A DNA stretch of 16,371 bases from a virus. Where the stretch lies: the UHGV virus genome UHGV-0104965. One strand, given 5' to 3'. Both the position numbers and the translations under genes were made by a program. Below, in pieces: positions 2,113 to 12,640 of the stretch (its first letter is position 1; every line of letters starts with the position of its first letter). Under the pieces are notes generated by a model that did not search any database, was not told the DNA's origin, and saw only the letters and a list, made by a program, of their open reading frames with translations.

Positions 2113-2138
2113 AAAAAGGGCCGCGATAGCGACCCAAG
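2113..2138 (-). terminator. Candidate intrinsic terminator between methyltransferase and holin genes
   Basis: On the minus strand GGGUCGC-uauc-GCGGCCC (7-bp stem with one G-U pair) followed by UUUUU. Stem is more stable in the minus-strand RNA, matching the transcription direction. Confidence 0.5.
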
Positions 2139-2141
2139 CTT

Positions 2142-3194
2142 TTATTCCCCTGCCAGCTGCCTTACCTCACTTACCGTCTGGTTGAAACGTTCCTCTTCCA
2201 GTTCTACGCCGATAGCCTGGCGGCCCAGTTCAATGGCTGCTTTAACAGTTGATCCCGAGCCCATAAAGAAATCAGCTACCACATCGCCGGGCCTGCTGCT
2301 GGCGTTGATGATTTGCCGCAACATATCAGCGGGCTTTTCGCACGGGTGTTTGCCTGGATAGAACTGGACTGGTTTATGGGTCCATACGTCCGTATATGGC
2401 ACGGCAGCTGTCACAGAGAAATGCCGCCGAAGTGATTTGTACTCTTCGAGCAGCTCTGAATATTTGCGATTCAACGAATGCCACAGAGCCACCAGCTGGT
2501 GGTGTGGTGTTGCCAGTTCGCCGTTCTGGTGCTTTTCGATGGCTACCTGCGTGAAAAGGGACTGAAGTTTCCGGTAGTCTGATTCATTCGGTAATTGCCA
2601 CTGGCTACCGCTGAACCAGTGAGACACCATGTTCTTCTTTCCAGTCGCATCGGCTATTTGTTTTGAGGATATGCCAAGCGCTTCACGTGCATCCCGGAAA
2701 TAAGATATTAGGGGAGTCATTACATGCTGCTTCAGCTCGCTTCCCTTCTCAGCGTACCCGTCGCTCTTTGGTTTATACGGCCCCTGGTAATGCTCAGCGA
2801 ACAGGATGCGTTCTGTTGCAGGGAAGTAAGAGCGCAGGCTCTCTTTATTACAGCCATTCCAGCGGCCCGACGGTTTAGCCCAGATGATGTGGTTCAGGAT
2901 GTTGAACCGCTCACGCATCATGATCTCAATGTCTGCCGCCAGGCGGTGACCGGAGAAAAGATAAAGACTGCCAGCAGGTTTAAGCACTCGCCAGAATTGT
3001 GCGAGGCACATATCAAGCCAGCGAAGATAATCCTCATCCCCTTTCCATTGATTGTCCCAGCCGTTGGGTTTCACTTTGAAGTACGGCGGATCCGTAACAA
3101 TAAGGTCAATGGTGTTATCTGGGAGGGTTGCGAGGTATAGCAGGCAGTCAGCGTTGACAAGCTCAACACTGTTTATATTTACAGTATTTTTCAT
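2142..3194 (-). CDS. DNA methyltransferase, beta-class (N6-adenine or N4-cytosine), orphan phage enzyme
   Basis: Motif IV TDPPY near the N-terminus and SAM-binding motif I FFMGSGST near the C-terminus (beta-class order: IV then I). 350 aa, no adjacent restriction endonuclease gene. Confidence 0.9.
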   Translation of the reverse strand: MKNTVNINSVELVNADCLLYLATLPDNTIDLIVTDPPYFKVKPNGWDNQWKGDEDYLRWLDMCLAQFWRVLKPAGSLYLFSGHRLAADIEIMMRERFNILNHIIWAKPSGRWNGCNKESLRSYFPATERILFAEHYQGPYKPKSDGYAEKGSELKQHVMTPLISYFRDAREALGISSKQIADATGKKNMVSHWFSGSQWQLPNESDYRKLQSLFTQVAIEKHQNGELATPHHQLVALWHSLNRKYSELLEEYKSLRRHFSVTAAVPYTDVWTHKPVQFYPGKHPCEKPADMLRQIINASSRPGDVVADFFMGSGSTVKAAIELGRQAIGVELEEERFNQTVSEVRQLAGE

Positions 3195-3392
3195 AGATCC
3201 GTAAGCGTAACTCTGATAGGCTCACTATGCTTTTGCGCTAAAGCAGTGGGCCTTGGTTAGCTTGTGACCTGAAAGCATGAGCTGATGGCTGGCCGGGTGC
3301 TACAACACCCTCCAGCCGCCCATTTCTCAAGCGAAAATGCCTCCAGATAGGAGGAGCGTAGATTAGATAACTGGCTTTAATTTTCTGTCGAC

Positions 3393-3425
3393 GAAAAAAA
3401 ACCCGCTATTAAGCGGGTTTTTTCC
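3393..3425. terminator. Strong bidirectional rho-independent terminator ending the AT-rich moron
   Basis: ACCCGCU(3401-3407)-auua-AGCGGGU(3412-3418), 7-bp stem, flanked by an A8 run upstream and T-run downstream; directly follows the stop of the 53-aa CDS on the minus strand. Confidence 0.75.
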
Positions 3426-3445
3426 TATTTTTTAAGCGGCAAGAT

Positions 3446-3607
3446 TCATGCGGCTTCTCTAACACGACGGCGACCTTGACGCTCTTGAGAAGGTGCCTGT
3501 GCATTCTCTTCAAGAGCTGGACCAACCTTCATAAGAAAGTCCAGAGCTTCGCCAGCTTTTCTGTAAGTTTGGATAGTATCAAACAAGCGTTCTTTTTTCA
3601 TTTCCAT
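3446..3607 (-). CDS. Small hypothetical protein (53 aa), unlisted in the ORF track
   Basis: Hand translation: MEMKKERLFDTIQTYRKAGEALDFLMKVGPALEENAQAPSQERQGRRRVREAA. ATG at 3607 preceded by GAGGTG SD; stop TGA at 3446-3448 followed by the strong terminator. Basic C-terminal tail. Function unknown. Confidence 0.55.
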   Translation of the reverse strand: MEMKKERLFDTIQTYRKAGEALDFLMKVGPALEENAQAPSQERQGRRRVREAA

Positions 3608-3855
3608 ACATCACCTCTTCGGAAGCATTGTTCCAGAGTGAACATGCATTTCGTGTAACAACATGCGTGCTGAAGTTCACATGTTCATGTTACTACTACA
3701 TGCAAGAAGCATCTCGATACTTGAGCCACTCATTGCCATAGCTTTGAGCGATTGACATAGATGGTAGCTGCCATCTAGTTCTTCGGTATCTAGTGCTTAA
3801 ACTTGAGTACACTATAACACAATTACAATGTACCCGCTAACTTATGGGATGATGA

Positions 3856-4401
3856 TTAAGCATCTCTTTCAGCCATGTATCTCATCAGCCTATCAAGACT
3901 ACAAGTCATAACATAAGAGCAACTATCTGACATTTCAAACCCAAAGGTCCGATAGTAATCAATCTTTTCTTCCACTGGTTCAATGATACGAACCTCAGTA
4001 CCATCAACTTGCTTCATGAAGATAACGGCGGCGTATAATGTATACAAAATCATCTTACGACGCAATGGATGATCTTCACTATCCTTCACGAAGTTCTCAA
4101 CTGCATGTATATCAAACCTACTGCTACCGTGATGGTAGGTGCACAATGCCACACCCGCTGGGTAATCATCAACAAGTTTATGCTCTTTAGAAGTTATTAG
4201 TTTAATACATAAACTGAAACAATCCGGGTCATTACCTACTGAGGTTACATAGTATTCCCAGTTAAGTTCACCATAAGCTCTTATGAGGGAACTAGTATCA
4301 TTAAAAGAAAGCGGACCGACTGCTAGATCTATCTCACGATGATCCATGTATGCCTGGAGGGTGTTATAGGTTTGTTGAGCTACTTCTTCCAGAGAAAGCA
4401 T
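3856..4401 (-). CDS. Hypothetical protein in AT-rich moron (about 181 aa), possible GNAT-like fold
   Basis: ORF 3856..4413 uses a TTG; first ATG is at 4401 (MLSLEEV...). No clear SD. Low GC versus flanks. C-terminal segment ...RRKMILYTLYAAVIFMKQVDGTEVRIIEP...IDYYRTFGFE loosely resembles the acetyltransferase core and Y-x-x-x-G-F motif; weak, eye-only. Confidence 0.7.
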   Translation of the reverse strand: MLSLEEVAQQTYNTLQAYMDHREIDLAVGPLSFNDTSSLIRAYGELNWEYYVTSVGNDPDCFSLCIKLITSKEHKLVDDYPAGVALCTYHHGSSRFDIHAVENFVKDSEDHPLRRKMILYTLYAAVIFMKQVDGTEVRIIEPVEEKIDYYRTFGFEMSDSCSYVMTCSLDRLMRYMAERDA

Positions 4402-4500
4402 AATGTAGGCCAAAACAGGAGTTTAAGGGTTGAAAAAGAATACCATTAACAAATGTTAAAAACACTGAAGGATGGGATGTTTTTTCAGATTACTCCCAAG

Positions 4501-4522
4501 AAAAAACCCGCTCACTGGCGGG
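4501..4522 (-). terminator. Intrinsic terminator immediately downstream of the Q-like gene (tR'-like)
   Basis: On minus strand CCCGC-cagtga-GCGGG followed by UUUUUU (complement of 4501-4506). About 50 nt downstream of the candidate late promoter. Confidence 0.7.
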
Positions 4523-4558
4523 CTGATATACTTTTAGCAACATATCAAATTAGCTTCA

Positions 4559-4587
4559 AATATCGCTTATTTTGTTGCATTTTGCAA
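4559..4587 (-). promoter_or_regulatory. Candidate late promoter pR' (sigma70-like)
   Basis: On minus strand TTGCAA (-35; plus 4582-4587), 17-bp spacer, GATATT (-10; plus 4559-4564), placed between the Q-like gene stop and the tR'-like terminator. Hexamers are imperfect; positional argument is the main support. Confidence 0.3.
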
Positions 4588-4617
4588 GCTTAATTGAGGG
4601 AGTTAGTGAAAGTTACA

Positions 4618-5331
4618 TCACATTTCCGCCACTTTCAGTTCTTGGTACTCTTCGTACCGTGACAAAATTTCGCTTAGTGCCTGGCTGTCCATCTCAGTAA
4701 ACGACGCTTTGAAAGCCGCCCAGTGGCATGAATACACTCTGAGCCAGGTGGAACGCTCAACGCTGACCATGCGCGCCAGCGCTGCACCAGCATACTCCTG
4801 ATAGGTATCGTTATTACGCGAGGCAGCAACTTCTTGCGCCGCCAGCCAGACAAGCCCTATCAGTTTTTTAGTGACACGGTCCTGGATTTTTTTGCCGCTA
4901 TGCTGACGCTGAAACTCTTCCCATACGAACTGGCACATTAACCTCTGGTACCGGAAAGCAAGGTCATGCCCATAGCAGTACCGCACCCATGCCTGCAAAT
5001 GCTCCCCAAGACCATTGACCGAACGACGCCATGCTGAACAAGCGAACTCCGCATCCTTAATAGGCGGTAAAGGTCTGCGACGGCTCCTTGTCTCAAGAAC
5101 ATAAAGTGGAGTGGCCATCGTTTTTACAACCTTGGATCCACAACCTTCCCCACCCTCCATGACGATTTCAGGATGGTGCCGGGGGTATTTGTTCTTATCT
5201 GCTGGTGGATGCTCACTGAACGCCTGCAGCTGTCCTTTTGTCGATCCTGATAAATCCGCCAGCGCGCGGCGCAGTTCAATCCGCGTATATTCCAGTTCTT
5301 GTAAATTCATTATGCTCAGCGCTCCATACAA
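4618..5331 (-). CDS. Putative late-gene antitermination protein Q (QuuQ/YdfT-like)
   Basis: 237-aa ORF directly downstream of the YdfU-like gene and upstream of a promoter-plus-terminator pair and the lysis cassette, the canonical Q position; this gene order and size match my recollection of ydfU-quuQ in E. coli Qin. No Cys4 zinc finger seen, so not lambda-Q type. Start may be the internal ATG at 5310 (MNLQELEY). Confidence 0.6.
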   Translation of the reverse strand: MYGALSIMNLQELEYTRIELRRALADLSGSTKGQLQAFSEHPPADKNKYPRHHPEIVMEGGEGCGSKVVKTMATPLYVLETRSRRRPLPPIKDAEFACSAWRRSVNGLGEHLQAWVRYCYGHDLAFRYQRLMCQFVWEEFQRQHSGKKIQDRVTKKLIGLVWLAAQEVAASRNNDTYQEYAGAALARMVSVERSTWLRVYSCHWAAFKASFTEMDSQALSEILSRYEEYQELKVAEM

Positions 5332-6393
5332 TTACGCTTTTGTTATTACGCCGATCGCCAGCGCTCGATTCATAAACCGGAATAGCAGCTCCAGCTGGGT
5401 ACCGTGCTTTTTCTCGAACGCTGCAACATCAGCATGTAAATTGTCGTGACACTCTCTGCACAGAGGGATCACAAACAAATCGTGGGCTTTAGTGGCGGTA
5501 CCGCCCATGCCGTGACCAATGACATGGTGTGGATCATCCGCTGGCCGCCGGCAAGCTTCACAGGGCTGGGTTTTAACCCACCGGGTATAGTCCTCATTCA
5601 CCCACCTGCGGTGTTTTGGGCGCAACATGAATGATTCAGGGGATTCAGGATCCGCATGCAGAGCCAGAACCTTTGGCAGTTCATAGGCTACTTCCTGATT
5701 TGCTCCATGCTTTAATTTCGCAGCCGTGACCGCAGGGGTGACCTTCTTCTGCAAAATGCTTTTTGCCGGGGGCATCGGCACAATGTCACTTTCTCGATAT
5801 ACGGATAAAAACGGCTCATCCGGTAATCGAAGCGCAAGCTGGGCCATCCTTTCCGTGATTGCATCAGCAATGCCTGAATAAACAGCCCACCAGCACAATT
5901 CACCGAGGGATAATTCACGCTCGTTGTTATACCCAAGCGATGACAGGATGGAACTGATCAGCCAGTTAATGAGATTACGCCGGGCCAATTCTGCCAGCGC
6001 CGCGGTGGTTTGATCGCGCAGCTGGTTATCGCAATGCCAACAGAGCAACATTGATCCAGGGGGATGTCGCATCGTTACCAGCTCATGATGGTGATAATCA
6101 GTGTGCGGGTACTGGCATTCCTTCACGTTACGCTCTAACCAGGATTCCAACGCGGTCAAACCGCCTGCTGCACGGATAACTCTCTCGTCGGTGAAGAATT
6201 CCTCGAGCGACTTATCTTCTGCCAGCGGCTGCCTGGCATCAGGGACGAGCCCCGACGGAAGCCCAGCCATACTTTTCGGCTGAGGCTCCACCAGCACACG
6301 CCCCTGTTGAAACAAAGACATCAGTTCGCTACCTGGCTTTAACAGCACAAGCCCAAGGCGCGGAACAGTCTCGGCTGTAAACAGTCCTCTCAC
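5332..6393 (-). CDS. YdfU-like phage protein (DUF968-type with C-terminal HNH/zinc-binding Cys-His cluster)
   Basis: 353 aa; Cys/His clusters CQYPHTDYHHHE...CWHCD and C-terminal PCEACRRP...HHVIGHGMGGTATKAHDLFVIPLCRECHDNLH (YbcO/DUF1364-like pattern). Start ATG overlaps the antirepressor stop (ATGA at 6390-6393). Confidence 0.8.
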   Translation of the reverse strand: MRGLFTAETVPRLGLVLLKPGSELMSLFQQGRVLVEPQPKSMAGLPSGLVPDARQPLAEDKSLEEFFTDERVIRAAGGLTALESWLERNVKECQYPHTDYHHHELVTMRHPPGSMLLCWHCDNQLRDQTTAALAELARRNLINWLISSILSSLGYNNERELSLGELCWWAVYSGIADAITERMAQLALRLPDEPFLSVYRESDIVPMPPAKSILQKKVTPAVTAAKLKHGANQEVAYELPKVLALHADPESPESFMLRPKHRRWVNEDYTRWVKTQPCEACRRPADDPHHVIGHGMGGTATKAHDLFVIPLCRECHDNLHADVAAFEKKHGTQLELLFRFMNRALAIGVITKA

Positions 6394-7082
6394 GCGGCAT
6401 GCCCCTTAGCGATGTGTGCCGTCCACAGGCCGCCGATCCACTCGATGCCTTTGGGTGTAAAACGTGCCTGGCTAAAGGCGTAGTTTGTTTCGCTCGAAGT
6501 GCCAGTTTTCACTTCAAACCGCCCGGCAGCAATGTGCTGGTGCCGCGGTGTCAGCACTCCGCCGAGCCGGTATAAAATGCCGCTCTCAATGAGGAACAAG
6601 CGGAAATCTGTCTCTTTGGCCTGCAACAGCTTTGCCACCTGGCGGAAAGACATTGAGCCTTTGGCAGTACAATACCGATCGACAAACTCAATTTTCGGCG
6701 CGGCAGCGGCTAACTGCTGGCTGAGTTGTTCTTTCTGCTCGGCCAGATCCGCGGCGAGACGTAATGCCTCCGGCAATGTTTGGGGGACACTTACGGCCTG
6801 GCTGTTCTCCAGCTCTTGCCAGCGATCGACAACAGCGGCGGTAAATTCTGGCGACAGCCTGGCGACGATCACCAGAGAATCACGTTTGTTGAACCAATAC
6901 TCCTCGTAGGTTTGCCCGTTTTGCGGGTGTGTGTAGGGGGTGTGCGCCAACGGCGCGGTTAAAATACCAGCAGATGCAAGGCGCTCAGCTGAGCGCTTCA
7001 CATCACCATGTTTGCTCTGTACCAGCCTGGCAATTTCACGGCTGGACATTGTCACAACACCCTTTGCGGTTAACTGATTCAT
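6390..7082 (-). CDS. Phage antirepressor, Rha/AntA-like N-terminal domain plus KilAC C-terminal domain
   Basis: ORF 6390..7130 trimmed to Met17 (MNQLTAKGV...), which has a GGAGA SD 7 nt upstream. N-terminus TMSSREIARLVQSKHGDVKRSAERL matches the Rha/Ant pattern; C-terminus ...FRQVAKLL...LYR...P.Q.I..GRFEVK... matches the KilAC pattern. Confidence 0.85.
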   Translation of the reverse strand: MNQLTAKGVVTMSSREIARLVQSKHGDVKRSAERLASAGILTAPLAHTPYTHPQNGQTYEEYWFNKRDSLVIVARLSPEFTAAVVDRWQELENSQAVSVPQTLPEALRLAADLAEQKEQLSQQLAAAAPKIEFVDRYCTAKGSMSFRQVAKLLQAKETDFRLFLIESGILYRLGGVLTPRHQHIAAGRFEVKTGTSSETNYAFSQARFTPKGIEWIGGLWTAHIAKGHAA

Positions 7083-7096
7083 GCTATTTCTCCATA

Positions 7097-9034
7097 TCAG
7101 GCGGCTGCACCCGCCTTTTGATTTGCACATAATTCAGGAAGATTTGCTTCTACCAGCGCACGAGCGAACGGCGGCGGTACTGCGTTACCGCAGCGCGCTA
7201 CCTGCTTGTCTTTGGCGTAACGATTGCCGCGATAGTCCTGATCGATAACGTAGCCGTCAGGGAAGCCCTGCGCCTTATAAAGCTCATGCGGTTGCAGCAT
7301 GCGCATTCCGATATCGACGATCTGGTACTTAACCCCCTCGATCGTCACCAGCCATTCATCCTCGCTATCACCGCAGTAGGTTTCGAGGAATGTCCGGACC
7401 TCGCCAACGTGCTGGCCACCAGCGGTAATCGTCGGCATAGGTGTATCCATGGTCTGACCGTCGCGGCAGGTTCCGCGCAGCTTCACCAAGTGCGACGCAA
7501 CTACCGCGTGATGATCAACAGTAGTGACAGAGTGGGCAGGCTCATCCATACCAACACCCGGCCCCGTGTAATTCCCACCATAGTGCTTTGCCAGGAACGC
7601 GCTCACCGTTGCAAACTTATTACCACCAGCAGTGACCGTGCCGAGCGGGTTATTCAGTTGAAGAACACGCGGTTCTTGCCCTAGGCGTTCGCCGTACCCC
7701 ATCTGGATCAGTGTTGGAGTTACCAGCTGCGACTTACCGCCACCACCTGCAGTAATCGTCGCGCTCGGTTCGTCAGCCCTGTGCCCAACACTAGCGCCAA
7801 ACTGGCGGGCGATGACCGGCGCAACCACGCACGCGCGGGACTGCCTGAGGATTGTATGAGCGGGTTTATCCAGCGGGCGCGGCTTTGCCTGGTACTCACT
7901 GCCGCCATTGCCAGCCAGGAACGGTGTCAGGGCGGCCTCAACTACGCCAAGCGCATGCCCATTCCCGCCCGGACGCGCCGACGTACCAGCGGTGACAGTT
8001 GGTACCGGCTCGGTCACTGGCTGCCCGGTGGCCCCGGTGCGGAATTTAGTAAGATGCGGTACCGCCAGCGCGTAGCCATGCTTTTTAGTGATGGTCTGCA
8101 ATGGCTCTAACAACGATTGCCCGCGGAAACAGTCATAACCTCCTTTCGTCGTGGTGTGGTTACACTTCACGATGAAAGGTGATGCGCTTTCGATAACAAA
8201 GCGCTGGATGCCGCGCGCGATACGTTTGAGCGTATTTTCCGCCAGCGGCTTTTTGCGGTCGAAGATGGAACGGGCCGGAATGTTCCAGTCAATGCACTCC
8301 GCCGCGGTACGCCATGGCGCCAGCTTGCCGCTTTGTACTTCCAGTGATTTTGGATCCCCATGAGTCGCTTCAGGCCAATGAATCTTGCGGCCGTCACAGC
8401 GCATGACCATGAAGAAACGCCTTCTGATCGTCGGCGCGCCGTAGTCACAAGCGCGCAGCTCACGATAATCGACCTCATAACCAAGCCCGGCGATCAGCTG
8501 TTGAGCCTGCTGGCCGTGCGGCTCAATGGCAAGAAATTCACAAACCTCAGCCAGTGCTGGGTGATTCGCCGCGATCCCCGTCGACAGCATGCCGACAAAT
8601 GCCTCGAATGTTTCACCAGCACGCTCAGGATCCGGGCGTAATTCTTCATCCAGCAGCGGGCCCCATGTCTTAAATTCTTCGACGTTCTCCAGCATCATGA
8701 CTCGGGGACGTACTGCCAGCGCCCAGCGCAGAACAATCCACGCCAGCCCGCGAATCTCTTTCTTAACTGGCTTAGCGCCCTTCGCTTTGGAAAAGTGGCG
8801 GCAGTCAGGGCTAAACCAGGCCAAGCCGACAGGTTTACCGCTGGTGGCTGCGCTTGGGTCAACGTCAAACACCGACTCGCAATAATGCAGCGTGTCAGGG
8901 TGATTCGTCTTATGCATCGCAATAGCGTTTTCGTCGTGGTTGATAGCGATATCCACGCTACGCCCGATCGCCACTTCAATGCCGGTACTCGCGCCGCCGC
9001 CACCAGCAAAGTTATCAACGATAATTTCACGCAT
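7097..9034 (-). CDS. DNA (cytosine-5)-methyltransferase with enlarged, four-module target-recognition region
   Basis: ORF 7097..9088 (GTG) trimmed to ATG at 9034 (MREIIVDNFAGGGGASTG, motif I). Motif IV region SPDCRHFS, motif VI ENV, motif VIII RRR, C-terminal motifs IX (QGFPDGY) and X (CGNAVPPP). Between VIII and IX are four degenerate repeats of P-x-x-T-[VI]-T-A-G-G ... [FT]-L. Confidence 0.9.
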   Translation of the reverse strand: MREIIVDNFAGGGGASTGIEVAIGRSVDIAINHDENAIAMHKTNHPDTLHYCESVFDVDPSAATSGKPVGLAWFSPDCRHFSKAKGAKPVKKEIRGLAWIVLRWALAVRPRVMMLENVEEFKTWGPLLDEELRPDPERAGETFEAFVGMLSTGIAANHPALAEVCEFLAIEPHGQQAQQLIAGLGYEVDYRELRACDYGAPTIRRRFFMVMRCDGRKIHWPEATHGDPKSLEVQSGKLAPWRTAAECIDWNIPARSIFDRKKPLAENTLKRIARGIQRFVIESASPFIVKCNHTTTKGGYDCFRGQSLLEPLQTITKKHGYALAVPHLTKFRTGATGQPVTEPVPTVTAGTSARPGGNGHALGVVEAALTPFLAGNGGSEYQAKPRPLDKPAHTILRQSRACVVAPVIARQFGASVGHRADEPSATITAGGGGKSQLVTPTLIQMGYGERLGQEPRVLQLNNPLGTVTAGGNKFATVSAFLAKHYGGNYTGPGVGMDEPAHSVTTVDHHAVVASHLVKLRGTCRDGQTMDTPMPTITAGGQHVGEVRTFLETYCGDSEDEWLVTIEGVKYQIVDIGMRMLQPHELYKAQGFPDGYVIDQDYRGNRYAKDKQVARCGNAVPPPFARALVEANLPELCANQKAGAAA

Positions 9035-9926
9035 TGACGGCCCCCTGCATGCTGTTGAAGAGACCACCAGCGGTCGTGATAATTTCACTCATCGGCATAC
9101 GTTCGAGCCACAGCTGGTTGATATTGGCTTTCAGCTTGTTCTGCTGTGAAACAGGTAGAGCGTCAGCCCCTTCAATCTGGTTAAACACCAGGCCAACCTC
9201 AAGAGGCCAGATGCGCGACTCTGCATCAGGCGTTGCAATGGGAGCAGGCATTACATTTTCCGGCACCGACGGAAGGGCCAATTTTGCCGCGGCGAATTGA
9301 GCCAATGACAATGCGGCACGCCCTTTTTCTTCCAGTTCGGTGCGATTGATATAGCTGAATCTTTCACCACGCCAGGTTTTGTCAAAGACAGCGATTGCCC
9401 CGGCAAAAAATGCGCTGGTGGGTTGCTGCTTCTCGTCAGCGGGAACAAACCAAACAGGAAGATCGAACCCAATACGACCACGAATAAACATGATGTGATC
9501 GGCATCCTCCGGCCACCATGTTTCACTTGTGGCTGACTTCACGAGGTATATGTAACGACCACCTTGATCACGCATCGCCATTGTGTGATTCATGATGTGG
9601 GTCATGCCAGTGATGGCCTGCTTTTCATGGTACTGAGAACGGCTATATGGCGGATTTGCAAACGCGGCGCCACCGAGTTCTGCCAGACGCTCTGACCAGT
9701 CCTGCGTCAGCGCGTTATCTTCGGCGGTATACCATGCAGGGCATTTAGCATTGCTATCGTCTGCAAACAGATCCAGAACCATCGGCCCAAATATCGAATT
9801 GATGCCCCAAAACAACAAATCCGGAGTGCGCCACTGATCGCCAACCTCTTTCAATTCATGCGCTGGCTTTGAGCGCAGTTCAGCCAGCGCGCGGCAATAT
9901 TTGTTATCAGCATTCATGCTCATCAT
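9027..9926 (-). CDS. Phage DNA N6-adenine methyltransferase (phage Dam family) with about 100-aa C-terminal extension
   Basis: WRTPDLLFWGINSIFGPMVLDLFADDSNAKC...AFANPPYS: the W-x-T-P ... D-x-x-A ... NPPY pattern of the phage Dam family. ATG overlaps stop of the O-like gene (ATGA at 9923-9926). Confidence 0.9.
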   Translation of the reverse strand: MMSMNADNKYCRALAELRSKPAHELKEVGDQWRTPDLLFWGINSIFGPMVLDLFADDSNAKCPAWYTAEDNALTQDWSERLAELGGAAFANPPYSRSQYHEKQAITGMTHIMNHTMAMRDQGGRYIYLVKSATSETWWPEDADHIMFIRGRIGFDLPVWFVPADEKQQPTSAFFAGAIAVFDKTWRGERFSYINRTELEEKGRAALSLAQFAAAKLALPSVPENVMPAPIATPDAESRIWPLEVGLVFNQIEGADALPVSQQNKLKANINQLWLERMPMSEIITTAGGLFNSMQGAVNA

Positions 9927-10786
9927 TTCGCTCCCCTGAAGCCAGCTGGAATGGCTTTATCTGGTCCACCAAATTTCATCGGATCATGCTTACGGATTGA
10001 GCCCCAATACTGTCGTTCTGGACGTCCTGCTGCGTTCCACTTATTTGCGGATTGCAGGTAGCCTGGGAATTTTGTTGGCAGAAACAGCGTTGTTGGGCGC
10101 AGATATTCGGCCATTTTCAGATCCTCGCCCCACTTCTCGACGCTGTAATCCACCACCAACAGCAGCTCATCGGGCGTAAACCCGTCAGCCAAGCGAGCCC
10201 GGATGTTTTCCAAGGATGATTTGCAGACCTGATACCGTGATCCGGTGGTCTTGTTCAGATGTGATAAAACCTGCTTCGCCTGATCGGTGATAACCACCAC
10301 AGGGTCGGGTTGCGCAGCAACCGGACAAGAATGTTTTTTATCTGATGGATCAGTAGTTGTATTTACTGACGGATCCCCCCCAGATTCTGACTGGTGAAAA
10401 CCGCCTTTTTCATCGTTTTTTGATGCCTCAGATTTTGACGCGTCGGTTTTTGAGGCATCAGATTTTGATGCGTCAGAATCTGACAGGTGAGAAAAGGCAG
10501 CAGCCTGTAATTTCGCAACATTGAGCTGGTAAACGTTCGATGCATTGCGGTTGCCTTTACGGCGCTGCTGGCGGGTTAACCACCCGTCTTTTTCCAGTTG
10601 AGATATGGCTGTGCGAACCGTGCTCTCACCGGCACCAATCTGGCGCGCGATGGTAGCGATGGAAGGCCAGCTAACCCCTTCATCACTGCTGAAGTCTGCC
10701 AGACGCGCCATGATGGCAACGCTGGACAGCTTCATGCCAGAAGCGGCACAAGCGTCCCAAACGTAACCCGTTAATTTAGTGCTCAT
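9923..10786 (-). CDS. Replication initiator (lambda O-like function): N-terminal winged-HTH, repetitive linker, conserved phage C-terminal domain
   Basis: N-terminal HTH ...WPSIATIARQIGAGESTVRTAISQLEKDGWL; central low-complexity repeats SDSDASKSDASKTDASKSEASKND encoded by iteron-like DNA repeats; C-terminal domain ...VLSHLNKTTGSRYQ...ENIRARLADGFTPDELLLVVDYSVEKW typical of phage replication proteins. ATG at 10786. Confidence 0.85.
   Translation of the reverse strand: MSTKLTGYVWDACAASGMKLSSVAIMARLADFSSDEGVSWPSIATIARQIGAGESTVRTAISQLEKDGWLTRQQRRKGNRNASNVYQLNVAKLQAAAFSHLSDSDASKSDASKTDASKSEASKNDEKGGFHQSESGGDPSVNTTTDPSDKKHSCPVAAQPDPVVVITDQAKQVLSHLNKTTGSRYQVCKSSLENIRARLADGFTPDELLLVVDYSVEKWGEDLKMAEYLRPTTLFLPTKFPGYLQSANKWNAAGRPERQYWGSIRKHDPMKFGGPDKAIPAGFRGAK
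10325..10484. repeat. Candidate origin of replication: four iteron-like repeats plus adjacent AT-rich tract inside the initiator gene
   Basis: CAGATTCTGAC (10381), CAGATTTTGAC (10429), CAGATTTTGAT (10459), CAGAATCTGAC (10474); 23-bp direct repeats GATGCCTCAGATTTTGACGCGTC / GAGGCATCAGATTTTGATGCGTC 30 bp apart; AT-rich segment 10325-10375. Same layout as lambda ori within gene O. Confidence 0.55.
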
Positions 10787-11127: not shown

Positions 11128-11733
11128 TTACTTCTCCATACAAGATTTGTCTGCCACGACGCCCGGAGCTGCACACTCGCGGGCGTCACTCTTTTCCGGC
11201 GCACAAAACACACGGAAAAGCAGCGTCAAATGTTCCTGCCACTTAGCCATCACCTGATAGCTGTTCTCTTCGATCTGGGTGCGTTCCTGAGCATCAATAA
11301 CGCCGTCAGCGGTAGCTTTACGAACGTATTGTGAATGCCTGCCGATCCACTCAACTGACTCCATGAGACGCTGGTTGATATCGCCGTTCTCAATCTCTTC
11401 AACATCAGCCAATGGCACAAAAACACCGTTCGAGTGACGTGCAATAGCGTTCGCTATGTGGTTTGAACCACCAGCACGTTGAAGCACCATCGCCCAACCG
11501 AGCGGGAAGATCTGATCGCCATCGGTACGCAGCCGGTTAAACAGCGCGTTCTCGGTCACACCCAACCACTCAGCAGCTTCTGAATATCCGCCAGGCAGCT
11601 CGGTGATCGTTTTTTTGATTGCGGCCACCAGCCAGGCTGGCTGCTTATCTACTTTCCATTCAGGTTCTATACCCACGGCTAGGTCCTCCCTTCTGTGGTT
11701 ATTTCTGATCGTTAGGCGATGTATTCTTGCCAT
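11128..11733 (-). CDS. CII-like lysogeny-establishment regulator (phage 186 CII / YdaT-like family)
   Basis: Position immediately downstream of cro-like gene; HTH-like segment YSEAAEWLGVTENALFNRLRTDGDQIFPLGWAMVL resembles the phage 186 CII pattern. ORF 11128..11760 begins with GTG; first ATG at 11733. Start uncertain (no clear SD); overlaps cro-like gene end. Confidence 0.6.
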   Translation of the reverse strand: MARIHRLTIRNNHRREDLAVGIEPEWKVDKQPAWLVAAIKKTITELPGGYSEAAEWLGVTENALFNRLRTDGDQIFPLGWAMVLQRAGGSNHIANAIARHSNGVFVPLADVEEIENGDINQRLMESVEWIGRHSQYVRKATADGVIDAQERTQIEENSYQVMAKWQEHLTLLFRVFCAPEKSDARECAAPGVVADKSCMEK

Positions 11734-11914
11734 AACGTTCTGGGTTGAATTCCAGTTCACCAGCAGTTCGATACGCAGCTTCAGCAGCTCGTCCTTTAGG
11801 GATTAAGCGTCCGGGGCGATTACGCCACTGGTAAACGGCCTCACTGGTGATGCCAAAAAATTCGGCAACTTTCTCAGTGCTGCCGAAATGTTGTTCAATC
11901 TCGTCGGTTGTCAT
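11699..11914 (-). CDS. Cro-like repressor (YdaS/Cro-type HTH)
   Basis: 71 aa with HTH STEKVAEFFGITSEAVYQWRNRPGRLIP; strong AGGAGG SD (11919-11924) before ATG at 11914; divergent from the CI-type repressor across an operator-rich region. Confidence 0.8.
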   Translation of the reverse strand: MTTDEIEQHFGSTEKVAEFFGITSEAVYQWRNRPGRLIPKGRAAEAAYRTAGELEFNPERYGKNTSPNDQK

Positions 11915-11927
11915 GAAGCCTCCTTAG

Positions 11928-11991
11928 CTAAGTTTGGTTAGATATTAATAACCAATCTAACTTTGGTCAATAAAAACTAAGATTACTTAGT
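11928..11991. promoter_or_regulatory. Right operator region with PR and three CTAAG-type repressor binding sites
   Basis: Sites CTAAGTTTGGTTAG (11928-11941), CTAACTTTGGTCA (11957-11969), ACTAAGATTACTTAGT (11976-11991). On the minus strand TTGACC (-35; plus 11965-11970), 17 bp, TAATAT (-10; plus 11942-11947) forms PR for cro; the CI-type repressor gene starts at 12014. Confidence 0.6.
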
Positions 11992-12013: not shown

Positions 12014-12640
12014 ATGGAAACGGTTGGTCAGCGCATTAAAGCCCTACGCAGGGTTACAAAAACCTCTCAAAAAGAACTGGGTAAGTTCTGCGGGGTTAGT
12101 GACGTAGCGGTGGGTTATTGGGAAAAGGATGTGAATATCCCTAACGGAGAATCGCTGGTTAAGCTGGCTAAATTCTTCAATACATCAATAAATTACATTC
12201 TTTACGGCACTGAATTTGAAGGTACCCTCATAACTAAAATGAGGCGTGTGCCCGTGATTTCCTGGGTTCAAGCTGGGCAGTTTACGGAATGTAAGGCCGC
12301 TGATTTATTCAGTGATGTTGATAAATGGGTTGAAACATCACTACGCATTGGGGATAGCTCGTTCGCTTTAGAGGTCAAAGGGGATTCAATGACCAATCCA
12401 AATGGCCTCCCAACAATCCCTGAAGGGGCAACCGTTATTGTTGATCCAGATGCCGAACCCCTTCATGGCAAGATTGTTGTTGCGCGTATTGATGGCACTA
12501 ACGAAGCGACTGTTAAAAAACTGGTCATTGATGGCCCACAAAAATTTTTAGTCCCACTAAATCCTCGCTACCCCAACCTCCCGATCAATGGTAACTGCCT
12601 CATTATTGGCGTAGTTAAAGGCGTTCAGTACGAACTCTAA
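12014..12640 (+). CDS. CI-type prophage repressor (N-terminal XRE HTH, C-terminal S24 LexA-like peptidase)
   Basis: HTH QKELGKFCGVSDVAVGYWEKDVNIPNGESLVKLAKFF; C-terminal autocleavage domain with Ser in GDSM and Lys in VKKLV; divergent from cro-like gene. Confidence 0.95.
   Translation: METVGQRIKALRRVTKTSQKELGKFCGVSDVAVGYWEKDVNIPNGESLVKLAKFFNTSINYILYGTEFEGTLITKMRRVPVISWVQAGQFTECKAADLFSDVDKWVETSLRIGDSSFALEVKGDSMTNPNGLPTIPEGATVIVDPDAEPLHGKIVVARIDGTNEATVKKLVIDGPQKFLVPLNPRYPNLPINGNCLIIGVVKGVQYEL

Follow-up and report, generated by a model that had tools for sequence, protein, structure and literature searches.

Three DNA methylase genes of a temperate enterobacterial phage: a probable toolkit for self-methylation in the lytic phase

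Background

Why should one temperate phage carry DNA methylases of three different classes, and at what stage of its life would it use them? The question is raised by the virus genome UHGV-0104965, whose whole analysed stretch of 16,371 nucleotides (nt) is here called the window. It encodes a beta-class N6-adenine methylase, a C5-cytosine methylase and an adenine methylase of the phage Dam family, and a sequence-only reading had taken these for three orphan enzymes, two expressed early and one late, that serve a layered anti-restriction or epigenetic strategy. That phages use orphan methylases against restriction is textbook knowledge. The gene set recurs in many Enterobacteriaceae prophages and isolated phages, and the finding as first stated is ordinary.

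We conclude, with a probability of roughly 0.65, that the three genes form a toolkit with which the phage methylates its own DNA in the lytic phase, switched off in the lysogen and protecting progeny DNA from restriction. Most likely this is an ordinary anti-restriction toolkit that follows an already-known strategy and is widespread in Enterobacteriaceae prophages. What may be new here are two architectural details of the early genes for which we found no description in the searchable literature, namely a putative adaptor domain, which we call SD, and a variable repeat array.

The phage is temperate and enterobacterial, and its immunity, early-right and lysis region makes up the window, which is here read on the minus strand. 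Human-gut metagenome contigs match it at 100% identity, its best protein matches belong to the Enterobacter cloacae complex, and the close relatives of the element are Escherichia coli prophages and the isolated phages Eeyore, LLS and Flotzy.

Results and discussion

Three intact methylase genes without a nuclease partner

All three open reading frames (ORFs) proposed as methylases are present at full length on the minus strand and fall into three families, each with Pfam scores above the curated cut-offs. The genes and their parts, with protein positions in amino acids (aa), are:

2142-3194, minus strand: M.EcoGII-family beta-class N6-adenine methyltransferase, 350 aa
7097-9034, minus strand: C5-cytosine DNA methyltransferase, 645 aa
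7355-8119, minus strand: seven tandem repeats of 33-46 aa (about 35) at aa 306-560 of the C5 enzyme, consensus QPLDEPLPTVTAGNHHALVAAFLAKYYGGSYGGR, found with a repeat hidden Markov model (HMM)
9027-9926, minus strand: Dam::SD fusion ORF
9030-9221, minus strand: SD, a small C-terminal domain of the Dam ORF (about 60 aa, aa 236-299) that abuts the C5 start codon
9279-9926, minus strand: Dam domain (PF05869), aa 1-216 of Dam::SD, with an NPPY motif and a start that overlaps the stop codon of the replication gene (ATGA)

In the late gene the Pfam domain N6_N4_Mtase (PF01555) covers aa 29-340 (E 7.6e-44), and the motifs follow the beta-class order of DPPY (aa 34-37), a central target-recognition domain (TRD) and FxGxG (FFMGSGST, at about aa 309-316). 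The C5 methylase matches DNA_methylase (PF00145) with an E value of 3.9e-20 and 73 bits, versus a cut-off of 22; its TIGR00675 score lies below the cut-off. Its motifs FAGGGG, SPDC78, ENV116-118, R204/R206 (RxR) and GNAVPP616-621 are intact and are invariant in 104 diverse homologues. Motif IV (aa 75-78) reads S-P-D-C, with an aspartate between the proline and the catalytic cysteine instead of the canonical P-C, and is invariant in this form throughout the family. The start of the gene at ATG 9034 is supported by 645-aa homologues that are 99% identical (a cluster of 1680 sequences), the longest ORF starting at GTG 9088. The Dam ORF matches PF05869 (E 3.6e-45, 154 bits versus a cut-off of 28) and the NCBIfam model TIGR01712 (209 bits versus a cut-off of 97), and its catalytic motif, FANPPYS, is intact.

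None of the three is accompanied by a restriction endonuclease, as had been noted. Searches of the neighbouring genes in the window with Pfam, PADLOC and NCBIfam yielded no nuclease of restriction or defence, none was found in the flanks of identical contigs, and none is annotated in a complete related E. coli prophage. Cognate restriction genes lying just outside the window were thus looked for as well; the flanks extend to the terminase on one side and, on the other, to the integrase and host genes (an MFS transporter, ecotin and mqo).

An M.EcoGII-family methylase behind the Q gene

The enzyme encoded at 2142-3194 is 79% identical to M.EcoGII over 348 aa, which is its full length (BLASTP; 350 versus 349 aa). 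Its TRD, a four-helix helix-turn-helix (HTH) region at residues 160-237 (approximately; nt 2484-2717) with a weak HTH_3 match at aa 167-197, is 79.5% identical. The M.EcoGII reference sequence was machine-read from the PDF of Table S1 of PMC11551740 and may contain small errors. Identity is 86% to the ancestor Anc289, 74% to SUPREM and 96.6% to the gene of phage Eeyore. The authors of SUPREM describe the reconstructed ancestors of the M.EcoGII clade as largely non-sequence-specific, and M.EcoGII itself is a prophage-borne enzyme that methylates adenine in any context, is unexpressed in the lysogen and is harmful if expressed constitutively (PMC5778455). Judged by this homology, the enzyme in the window is almost certainly a non-specific adenine methylase, and a site-specific reading of it needs correcting.

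The resemblance to M.EcoGII and M.EcoGI from E. coli O104:H4 prophages (PMC5778455) extends to length, full-length identity including the HTH TRD, motif order and a prophage location. However, the present enzyme comes from an Enterobacter-type prophage and differs in about one-fifth of its residues, and its location between Q and the lysis genes, with flanking hairpins, is documented here and not in PMC5778455. M.EcoGIX was dropped from the comparison, being plasmid-borne. Homologues of M.EcoGI and M.EcoGII are silent in lysogens (PMC5778455, PMC4659465), and those of M.EcoGII type in ST131 and O111 strains were either silent or gave no detectable motif (PMC4659465, PMC6602927).

The timing of expression can be judged from the following features around the three genes:

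12014-12640, plus strand: CI-like repressor (HTH and S24 peptidase, Pfam)
11942-11970, minus strand: PR-like sigma-70 promoter, TTGACC-17-TAATAT, between cI and cro and pointing into the early operon (consensus match only)
11699-11914, minus strand: Cro
11128-11760, minus strand: CII-like protein
9923-10786, minus strand: replication initiator (HTH and Phg_2220_C, Pfam), directly upstream of the Dam ORF in one operon
6390-7130, minus strand: Ant/Rha
5332-6393, minus strand: DUF968/HNH-like protein (Pfam PF06147), in the NinG/Rap position
4618-5331, minus strand: Q antiterminator (Pfam PF06323, E 2.5e-40), marking the border between the early and late operons
4505-4524, minus strand: tR'-like intrinsic terminator (hairpin and T-run), about 95 nt past the Q stop codon
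3396-3423, no single strand: strong, bidirectional terminator-like hairpin (stem of 12 bp) where a low-GC insert ends, upstream of the late methylase
2118-2135, minus strand: terminator-like hairpin with a T-run, between the stop codon of the late methylase and the holin gene

On the minus strand Cro is followed by the CII-like protein, a DUF4222 protein, the replication initiator, Dam, the C5 methylase, Ant/Rha, DUF968 and Q, and after Q come the low-GC insert, the beta-class methylase, holin, lysozyme and spanin. The replication gene and Dam overlap by 4 nt (ATGA), Dam and C5 overlap by 8 nt, and no convincing minus-strand terminator was found between cro and Q. This order bears out the division into two early genes and one late gene, with two lying behind the replication initiator in the PR operon and one downstream of Q and the tR'-like terminator but upstream of holin. 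No tRNA genes were found downstream of Q.

A scan for sigma-70-like promoters found none ahead of the late methylase. Given this, and given Q, the tR'-like terminator and a terminator-like hairpin at either end of the gene, the natural reading is that the enzyme would be made only by Q-modified polymerase late in infection. The gene had been described as a late-operon moron; it is an accessory gene of that operon, but with no recognisable promoter of its own it is not a moron in the strict sense. Because all three methylase genes lie in operons that are repressed in the lysogen, they should be silent there, so that the lysogen methylome is probably blank. An epigenetic role in the lysogen is therefore unlikely, whereas the anti-restriction half of the strategy first proposed is the established reading of such genes (PMC12707154, PMC5778455).

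Two further observations concern this gene order. No gene for a helicase or helicase loader follows the replication initiator; the place that P holds in lambda is taken by Dam::SD, whose translation is coupled to that of the initiator. The tR'-like terminator and the late methylase are separated by an island of low GC content (window 3200-4600; 0.40 versus about 0.52) with minus-strand ORFs at 3856-4413 (185 aa, phrog_4350, function unknown) and 3446-3607 (53 aa). The slot holds other genes in relatives and so is a variable position for late-operon cargo.

A small domain that links the early adenine methylase to the C5 methylase

The early Dam ORF carries more than a Dam domain. It resembles the phage Dam family PF05869/TIGR01712 (T1, HP1 and the GATC-specific M.EcoVT2Dam of VT2-Sakai; PMC6602927) in its profile matches, its NPPY motif and its compact catalytic domain of about 200 aa, but differs in having an extra C-terminal domain, SD, which is predicted to form three helices and is linked to the C5 gene. 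In E. coli relatives an insert of about 160 aa additionally parts the two domains. AlphaFold2, run with a shallow alignment, gave no usable model of the Dam domain and modelled only SD, as three helices with a moderate pLDDT of 65-84.

Comparison of loci shows that SD belongs genetically with the C5 methylase rather than with Dam. Among 80 IMG/VR loci encoding C5 relatives, 51 have both a C5 protein at least 60% identical and upstream DNA, and in every one of them SD lies upstream of C5 on the same strand, its end falling -9 to +12 nt from the C5 start. Three more distant loci bring the number with SD to 54; the domain stands alone in 22 and is fused to Dam in another 22, and the remainder are fusions to a DPPH-motif methylase (4), to MT-A70 (3) or, in frame, to the C5 N-terminus (3). 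In Klebsiella phage 5 LV-2017 a free SD ORF of 85 aa immediately precedes the gene for a C5 methylase of 71% identity, and a Dam domain is absent. The boundary between SD and Dam is also a mosaic breakpoint relative to Eeyore and an E. coli prophage, with 97% identity up to about position 9218 and 81% beyond. SD stays 97% identical in Eeyore and the E. coli prophages despite the roughly 160 extra residues that separate it from the Dam domain.

This pattern suggests that SD is a partner or adaptor that physically tethers the adenine methylase to the C5 enzyme. Because the Dam ORF carries a C5-linked domain, the two early genes are better regarded as one coupled module. All three enzymes are thus orphans in lacking nuclease partners, but the early two are not independent of each other. 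Phage P1 Dmt is a single polypeptide with adenine and C5 methyltransferase moieties. The module in the window likewise couples adenine and C5 methylases within one phage, but does so through two overlapping genes joined by an adaptor-like domain, and P1-like phages did not stand out among the tblastn matches to the C5 enzyme, which indicates no close relationship.

The Dam ORF of the E. coli relatives is 444 aa long (loci L002 10793-12127 and L001 22366-23700), and its insert of about 160 residues is of unknown function. This ORF has been called 'PAPS reductase' via phrog_33262 in annotation of the Pharokka style, an apparent misnomer, as Pfam finds only the Dam domain.

A variable repeat array in the C5 methylase

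The seven repeats of the C5 methylase are placed between motifs VIII and IX, which is the position of the target-recognition domain. The repeat HMM detects all seven units (i-E 8e-07 to 8e-15), and each has a P-x-x-T-[IVL]-T core like the TL motif of C5 TRDs. Homologues with 77-99% identity span 605-695 aa. Most of these length differences are the exact loss of unit 3 or 5, or an extra unit between units 6 and 7, with two shorter insertions elsewhere adding to them. The family as a whole comprises 2578 clusters at 50% identity (E <1e-30) from phages of many phyla, and its members carry 0-12 units.

M.SPRI, M.Phi3TI, M.Rho11sI, M.SPBetaI, M.BssHII and M.BceSV are reportedly, from work of the Trautner laboratory, multispecific C5 methyltransferases of Bacillus phages and prophages, and 2-5 specificities are known for the Bacillus enzymes. 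In those of Bacillus phages several TRDs are arrayed in one polypeptide (PMC12707154, PMC7653180). The enzyme in the window resembles this type in being a phage-encoded orphan with tandem modules of about 35-45 aa between motifs VIII and IX, a T-[LIV] core, and modules that are present or absent in natural variants. It differs in having seven units (0-12 in the family), no significant sequence similarity, SPDC in place of PC, and an obligatory upstream SD partner. Multispecificity is here putative. Whether the units are independent TRDs or parts of one ordered array, it is plausible that they broaden the target range of the enzyme.

Several results keep the link to the Bacillus enzymes weak. 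The order of repeat types is conserved in 151 diverse representatives (1565 concordant versus 37 discordant type pairs), and certain types keep a constant place when counting starts at the C-terminal end; freely shuffled modules, a model that we had considered, were rejected on account of this order. AlphaFold2, which with an alignment of 104 sequences models the catalytic core with pLDDT above 90, gives pLDDT below 50 throughout the repeat region, with no confident fold and no discrete domains. A profile of the repeat unit matched PDB sequences only at chance level, and homology to MtbP of SPbeta is not significant (BLASTP E 0.007 in a single comparison; repeat HMM E 0.08-0.09). The repeats may instead constitute a single ordered array for DNA binding or scaffolding, conferring one relaxed or long specificity, processivity or protein docking, rather than a set of alternative TRDs. 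Since significant similarity to MtbP, a PDB match and a confidently predicted fold are lacking and the order is conserved, such an ordered composite array is a serious alternative to independent TRDs, although on balance we consider it less likely. Whole single units are lost or gained among proteins 77-99% identical with no other change, their number varies widely across the family, every unit has the TL-like core, the array sits exactly between motifs VIII and IX, and the weak matches to MtbP, including the best local one, fall on its two presumed TRD T-[LV] cores.

A bolder picture of the early pair, which we put forward only tentatively, is that of an undescribed two-enzyme machine in which SD would dock the adenine methylase fused to it (PF05869 Dam, MT-A70 or the DPPH type) onto the C5 enzyme, whose up to 12 ordered, TRD-like repeats would hit many cytosine targets. 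An incomplete literature search found no description of the SD domain or of a Gram-negative C5 methylase with multiple TRDs, which is weak evidence of novelty.

Sibling prophages and distribution

In sibling prophages that occupy the same integration site, Dam and most of C5 are missing and the late methylase is retained. In these siblings a 65-aa ORF (L005 4186-4383, and L008; about 7291-9925 in the window) is an exact remnant of the C5 C-terminus with motifs IX-X. At the junction, where this remnant meets the stop codon of the replication gene, there is a short GCATGA microhomology, and Dam and about 580 C5 codons are gone. Because the ORF matches the C5 C-terminus exactly, the state of the siblings is a deletion. 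The same ORF had been considered as a free SD, which was rejected since it is a remnant of C5. Loss of Dam and most of C5 in the siblings shows that a prophage can do without the early pair for its persistence and carriage.

Another sibling carries, in the left operon, a fourth methylase (L007 10938-11765; D12 class, PF02086, 275 aa) together with an Rv2179c-like exonuclease. The present phage has a 207-aa protein of unknown function in the D12 slot, just beyond the right end of the window.

Among 5426 complete E. coli genomes, 50 have any match and only about a dozen of the 50 carry C5 together with the late methylase at the level of megablast; in four, a single place covers at least 80% of the three-gene stretch. 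The Enterobacter protein clusters, in contrast to this occurrence in E. coli, are large.

Two observations lie outside the window. Just past its left end, in a contig (L003 10578-20342; ERR1190913 k127_39297), the large terminase gene stops at 331 aa. Next come an integrase, DUF2971, DUF4222, a DUF927 primase and a ClpP-capsid fusion, an arrangement that suggests a satellite or second element, either inserted into the terminase gene or assembled beside it. In the left operon of phage Eeyore (L002 18475-19227) there is an annotated queuine tRNA-ribosyltransferase (DpdA-like), which hints at 7-deazaguanine DNA modification besides methylation.

A model of lytic-phase methylation and its alternatives

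In the course of events that we propose, the CI-like repressor would silence the early operon in the lysogen and thereby also Q and the late operon. On induction PR would transcribe cro, the cII-like gene, the replication initiator, Dam::SD, C5, ant, DUF968 and Q. Replicating phage DNA would then receive adenine methylation from the Dam domain and 5-methylcytosine (m5C) from the C5 enzyme, with SD acting as the partner or adaptor through which the two early enzymes may work as one module, and with the seven TRD-like repeats possibly broadening the target range. By analogy with lambda, Q would carry RNA polymerase past the tR'-like terminator and past the hairpin on either side of the late gene, the M.EcoGII-type enzyme would be made only late, and adenines in nearly any context would be methylated just before packaging. 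This methylation would shield progeny DNA in the producing host or in the next one. The anti-restriction role of orphan phage methylases, multi-TRD enzymes and M.EcoGII included, has been reviewed (PMC12707154).

Some points weigh against this model beyond those raised by the repeat array. Promoters and terminators were assigned by matching to a consensus, and the promoter scan yielded no PR'. With M.EcoVT2Dam, which is specific for GATC, the Dam domain shares only 33% identity; its target is possibly GATC, in which case the enzyme would duplicate host Dam, and it would also be redundant with a non-specific late methylase. The deletion in the siblings also counts here, as the early module is dispensable at least for carriage.

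The alternative that best withstands the evidence on the system as a whole, though we judge it unlikely, is that the methylases mainly regulate the life cycle of the phage itself, that is, packaging, the timing of replication or transcription, rather than counter restriction. Phage P1 Dam, acting at pac sites, is an example of methylation-dependent packaging. A regulatory function would suit the coupling of Dam::SD to the replication initiator, in the lambda P position and with no helicase-loader gene present, as well as the seeming redundancy of Dam for protection if the late enzyme methylates all adenines, and regulatory roles of phage Dam enzymes have been discussed (PMC12707154). However, the siblings without Dam and C5 persist in several samples, and the number of methylase genes varies among related prophages, one of them having the fourth, D12, gene, which is typical of accessory genes in an arms race. 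The frequency of GATC in the window is likewise unremarkable; a search for over- or under-represented palindromes found only the usual depletion of CTAG.

Decay of one or more of the methylase genes into non-functional cargo is a good deal less probable. The siblings do hold a deletion derivative with the 65-aa remnant of C5, and homologues of the late enzyme showed no detectable methylation in lysogens (PMC4659465, PMC6602927). In the present phage, however, every one of the three ORFs has its full length and undamaged catalytic motifs, identity to large clusters (1680 sequences in the case of C5) and to genes of isolated, viable phages is 94-99%, and the catalytic residues of C5 are invariant among its diverse homologues.

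One could also suppose that the methylases provide the modification for a restriction or defence system in which an unrecognised neighbour is the nuclease (DUF968/HNH, the 185-aa protein, or a 352-aa protein beyond the integrase), but there is very little to recommend this idea. In its favour, DUF968 gives a weak match of the HNH type and several neighbours have no known function. Yet none of them matches a nuclease in PADLOC or NCBIfam, DUF968 fills the NinG/Rap slot, is retained by siblings without Dam and C5 and is not a cognate restriction enzyme, relatives that keep the methylase have other genes in the slot where this phage has the 185-aa gene, and a nuclease held in check by a non-specific adenine methylase would have no logic of self and non-self.

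Conclusion

The proposed self-methylation toolkit contains, in its late gene, a natural variant of M.EcoGII, whose family is used for footprinting of chromatin and RNA. In its early genes, SD offers a concrete handle on a possible physical coupling of adenine and cytosine methylases. The C5 family with its variable, TRD-like arrays is huge and uncharacterised, and m5C specificities are poorly mapped. If the two-enzyme machine proved real, this family, with its 2578 clusters across phyla, would count as a Gram-negative equivalent of the multispecific methylases of Bacillus phages, and a far more extreme one, and a modular C5 enzyme with many targets, if true, would allow temperate phages to cross many restriction barriers with one gene. 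At the same time, a phage that relies on heavy methylation of both adenine (m6A) and cytosine (m5C) would be exposed to Type IV, methyl-dependent restriction, and this vulnerability may explain why sibling prophages have deleted the early module.

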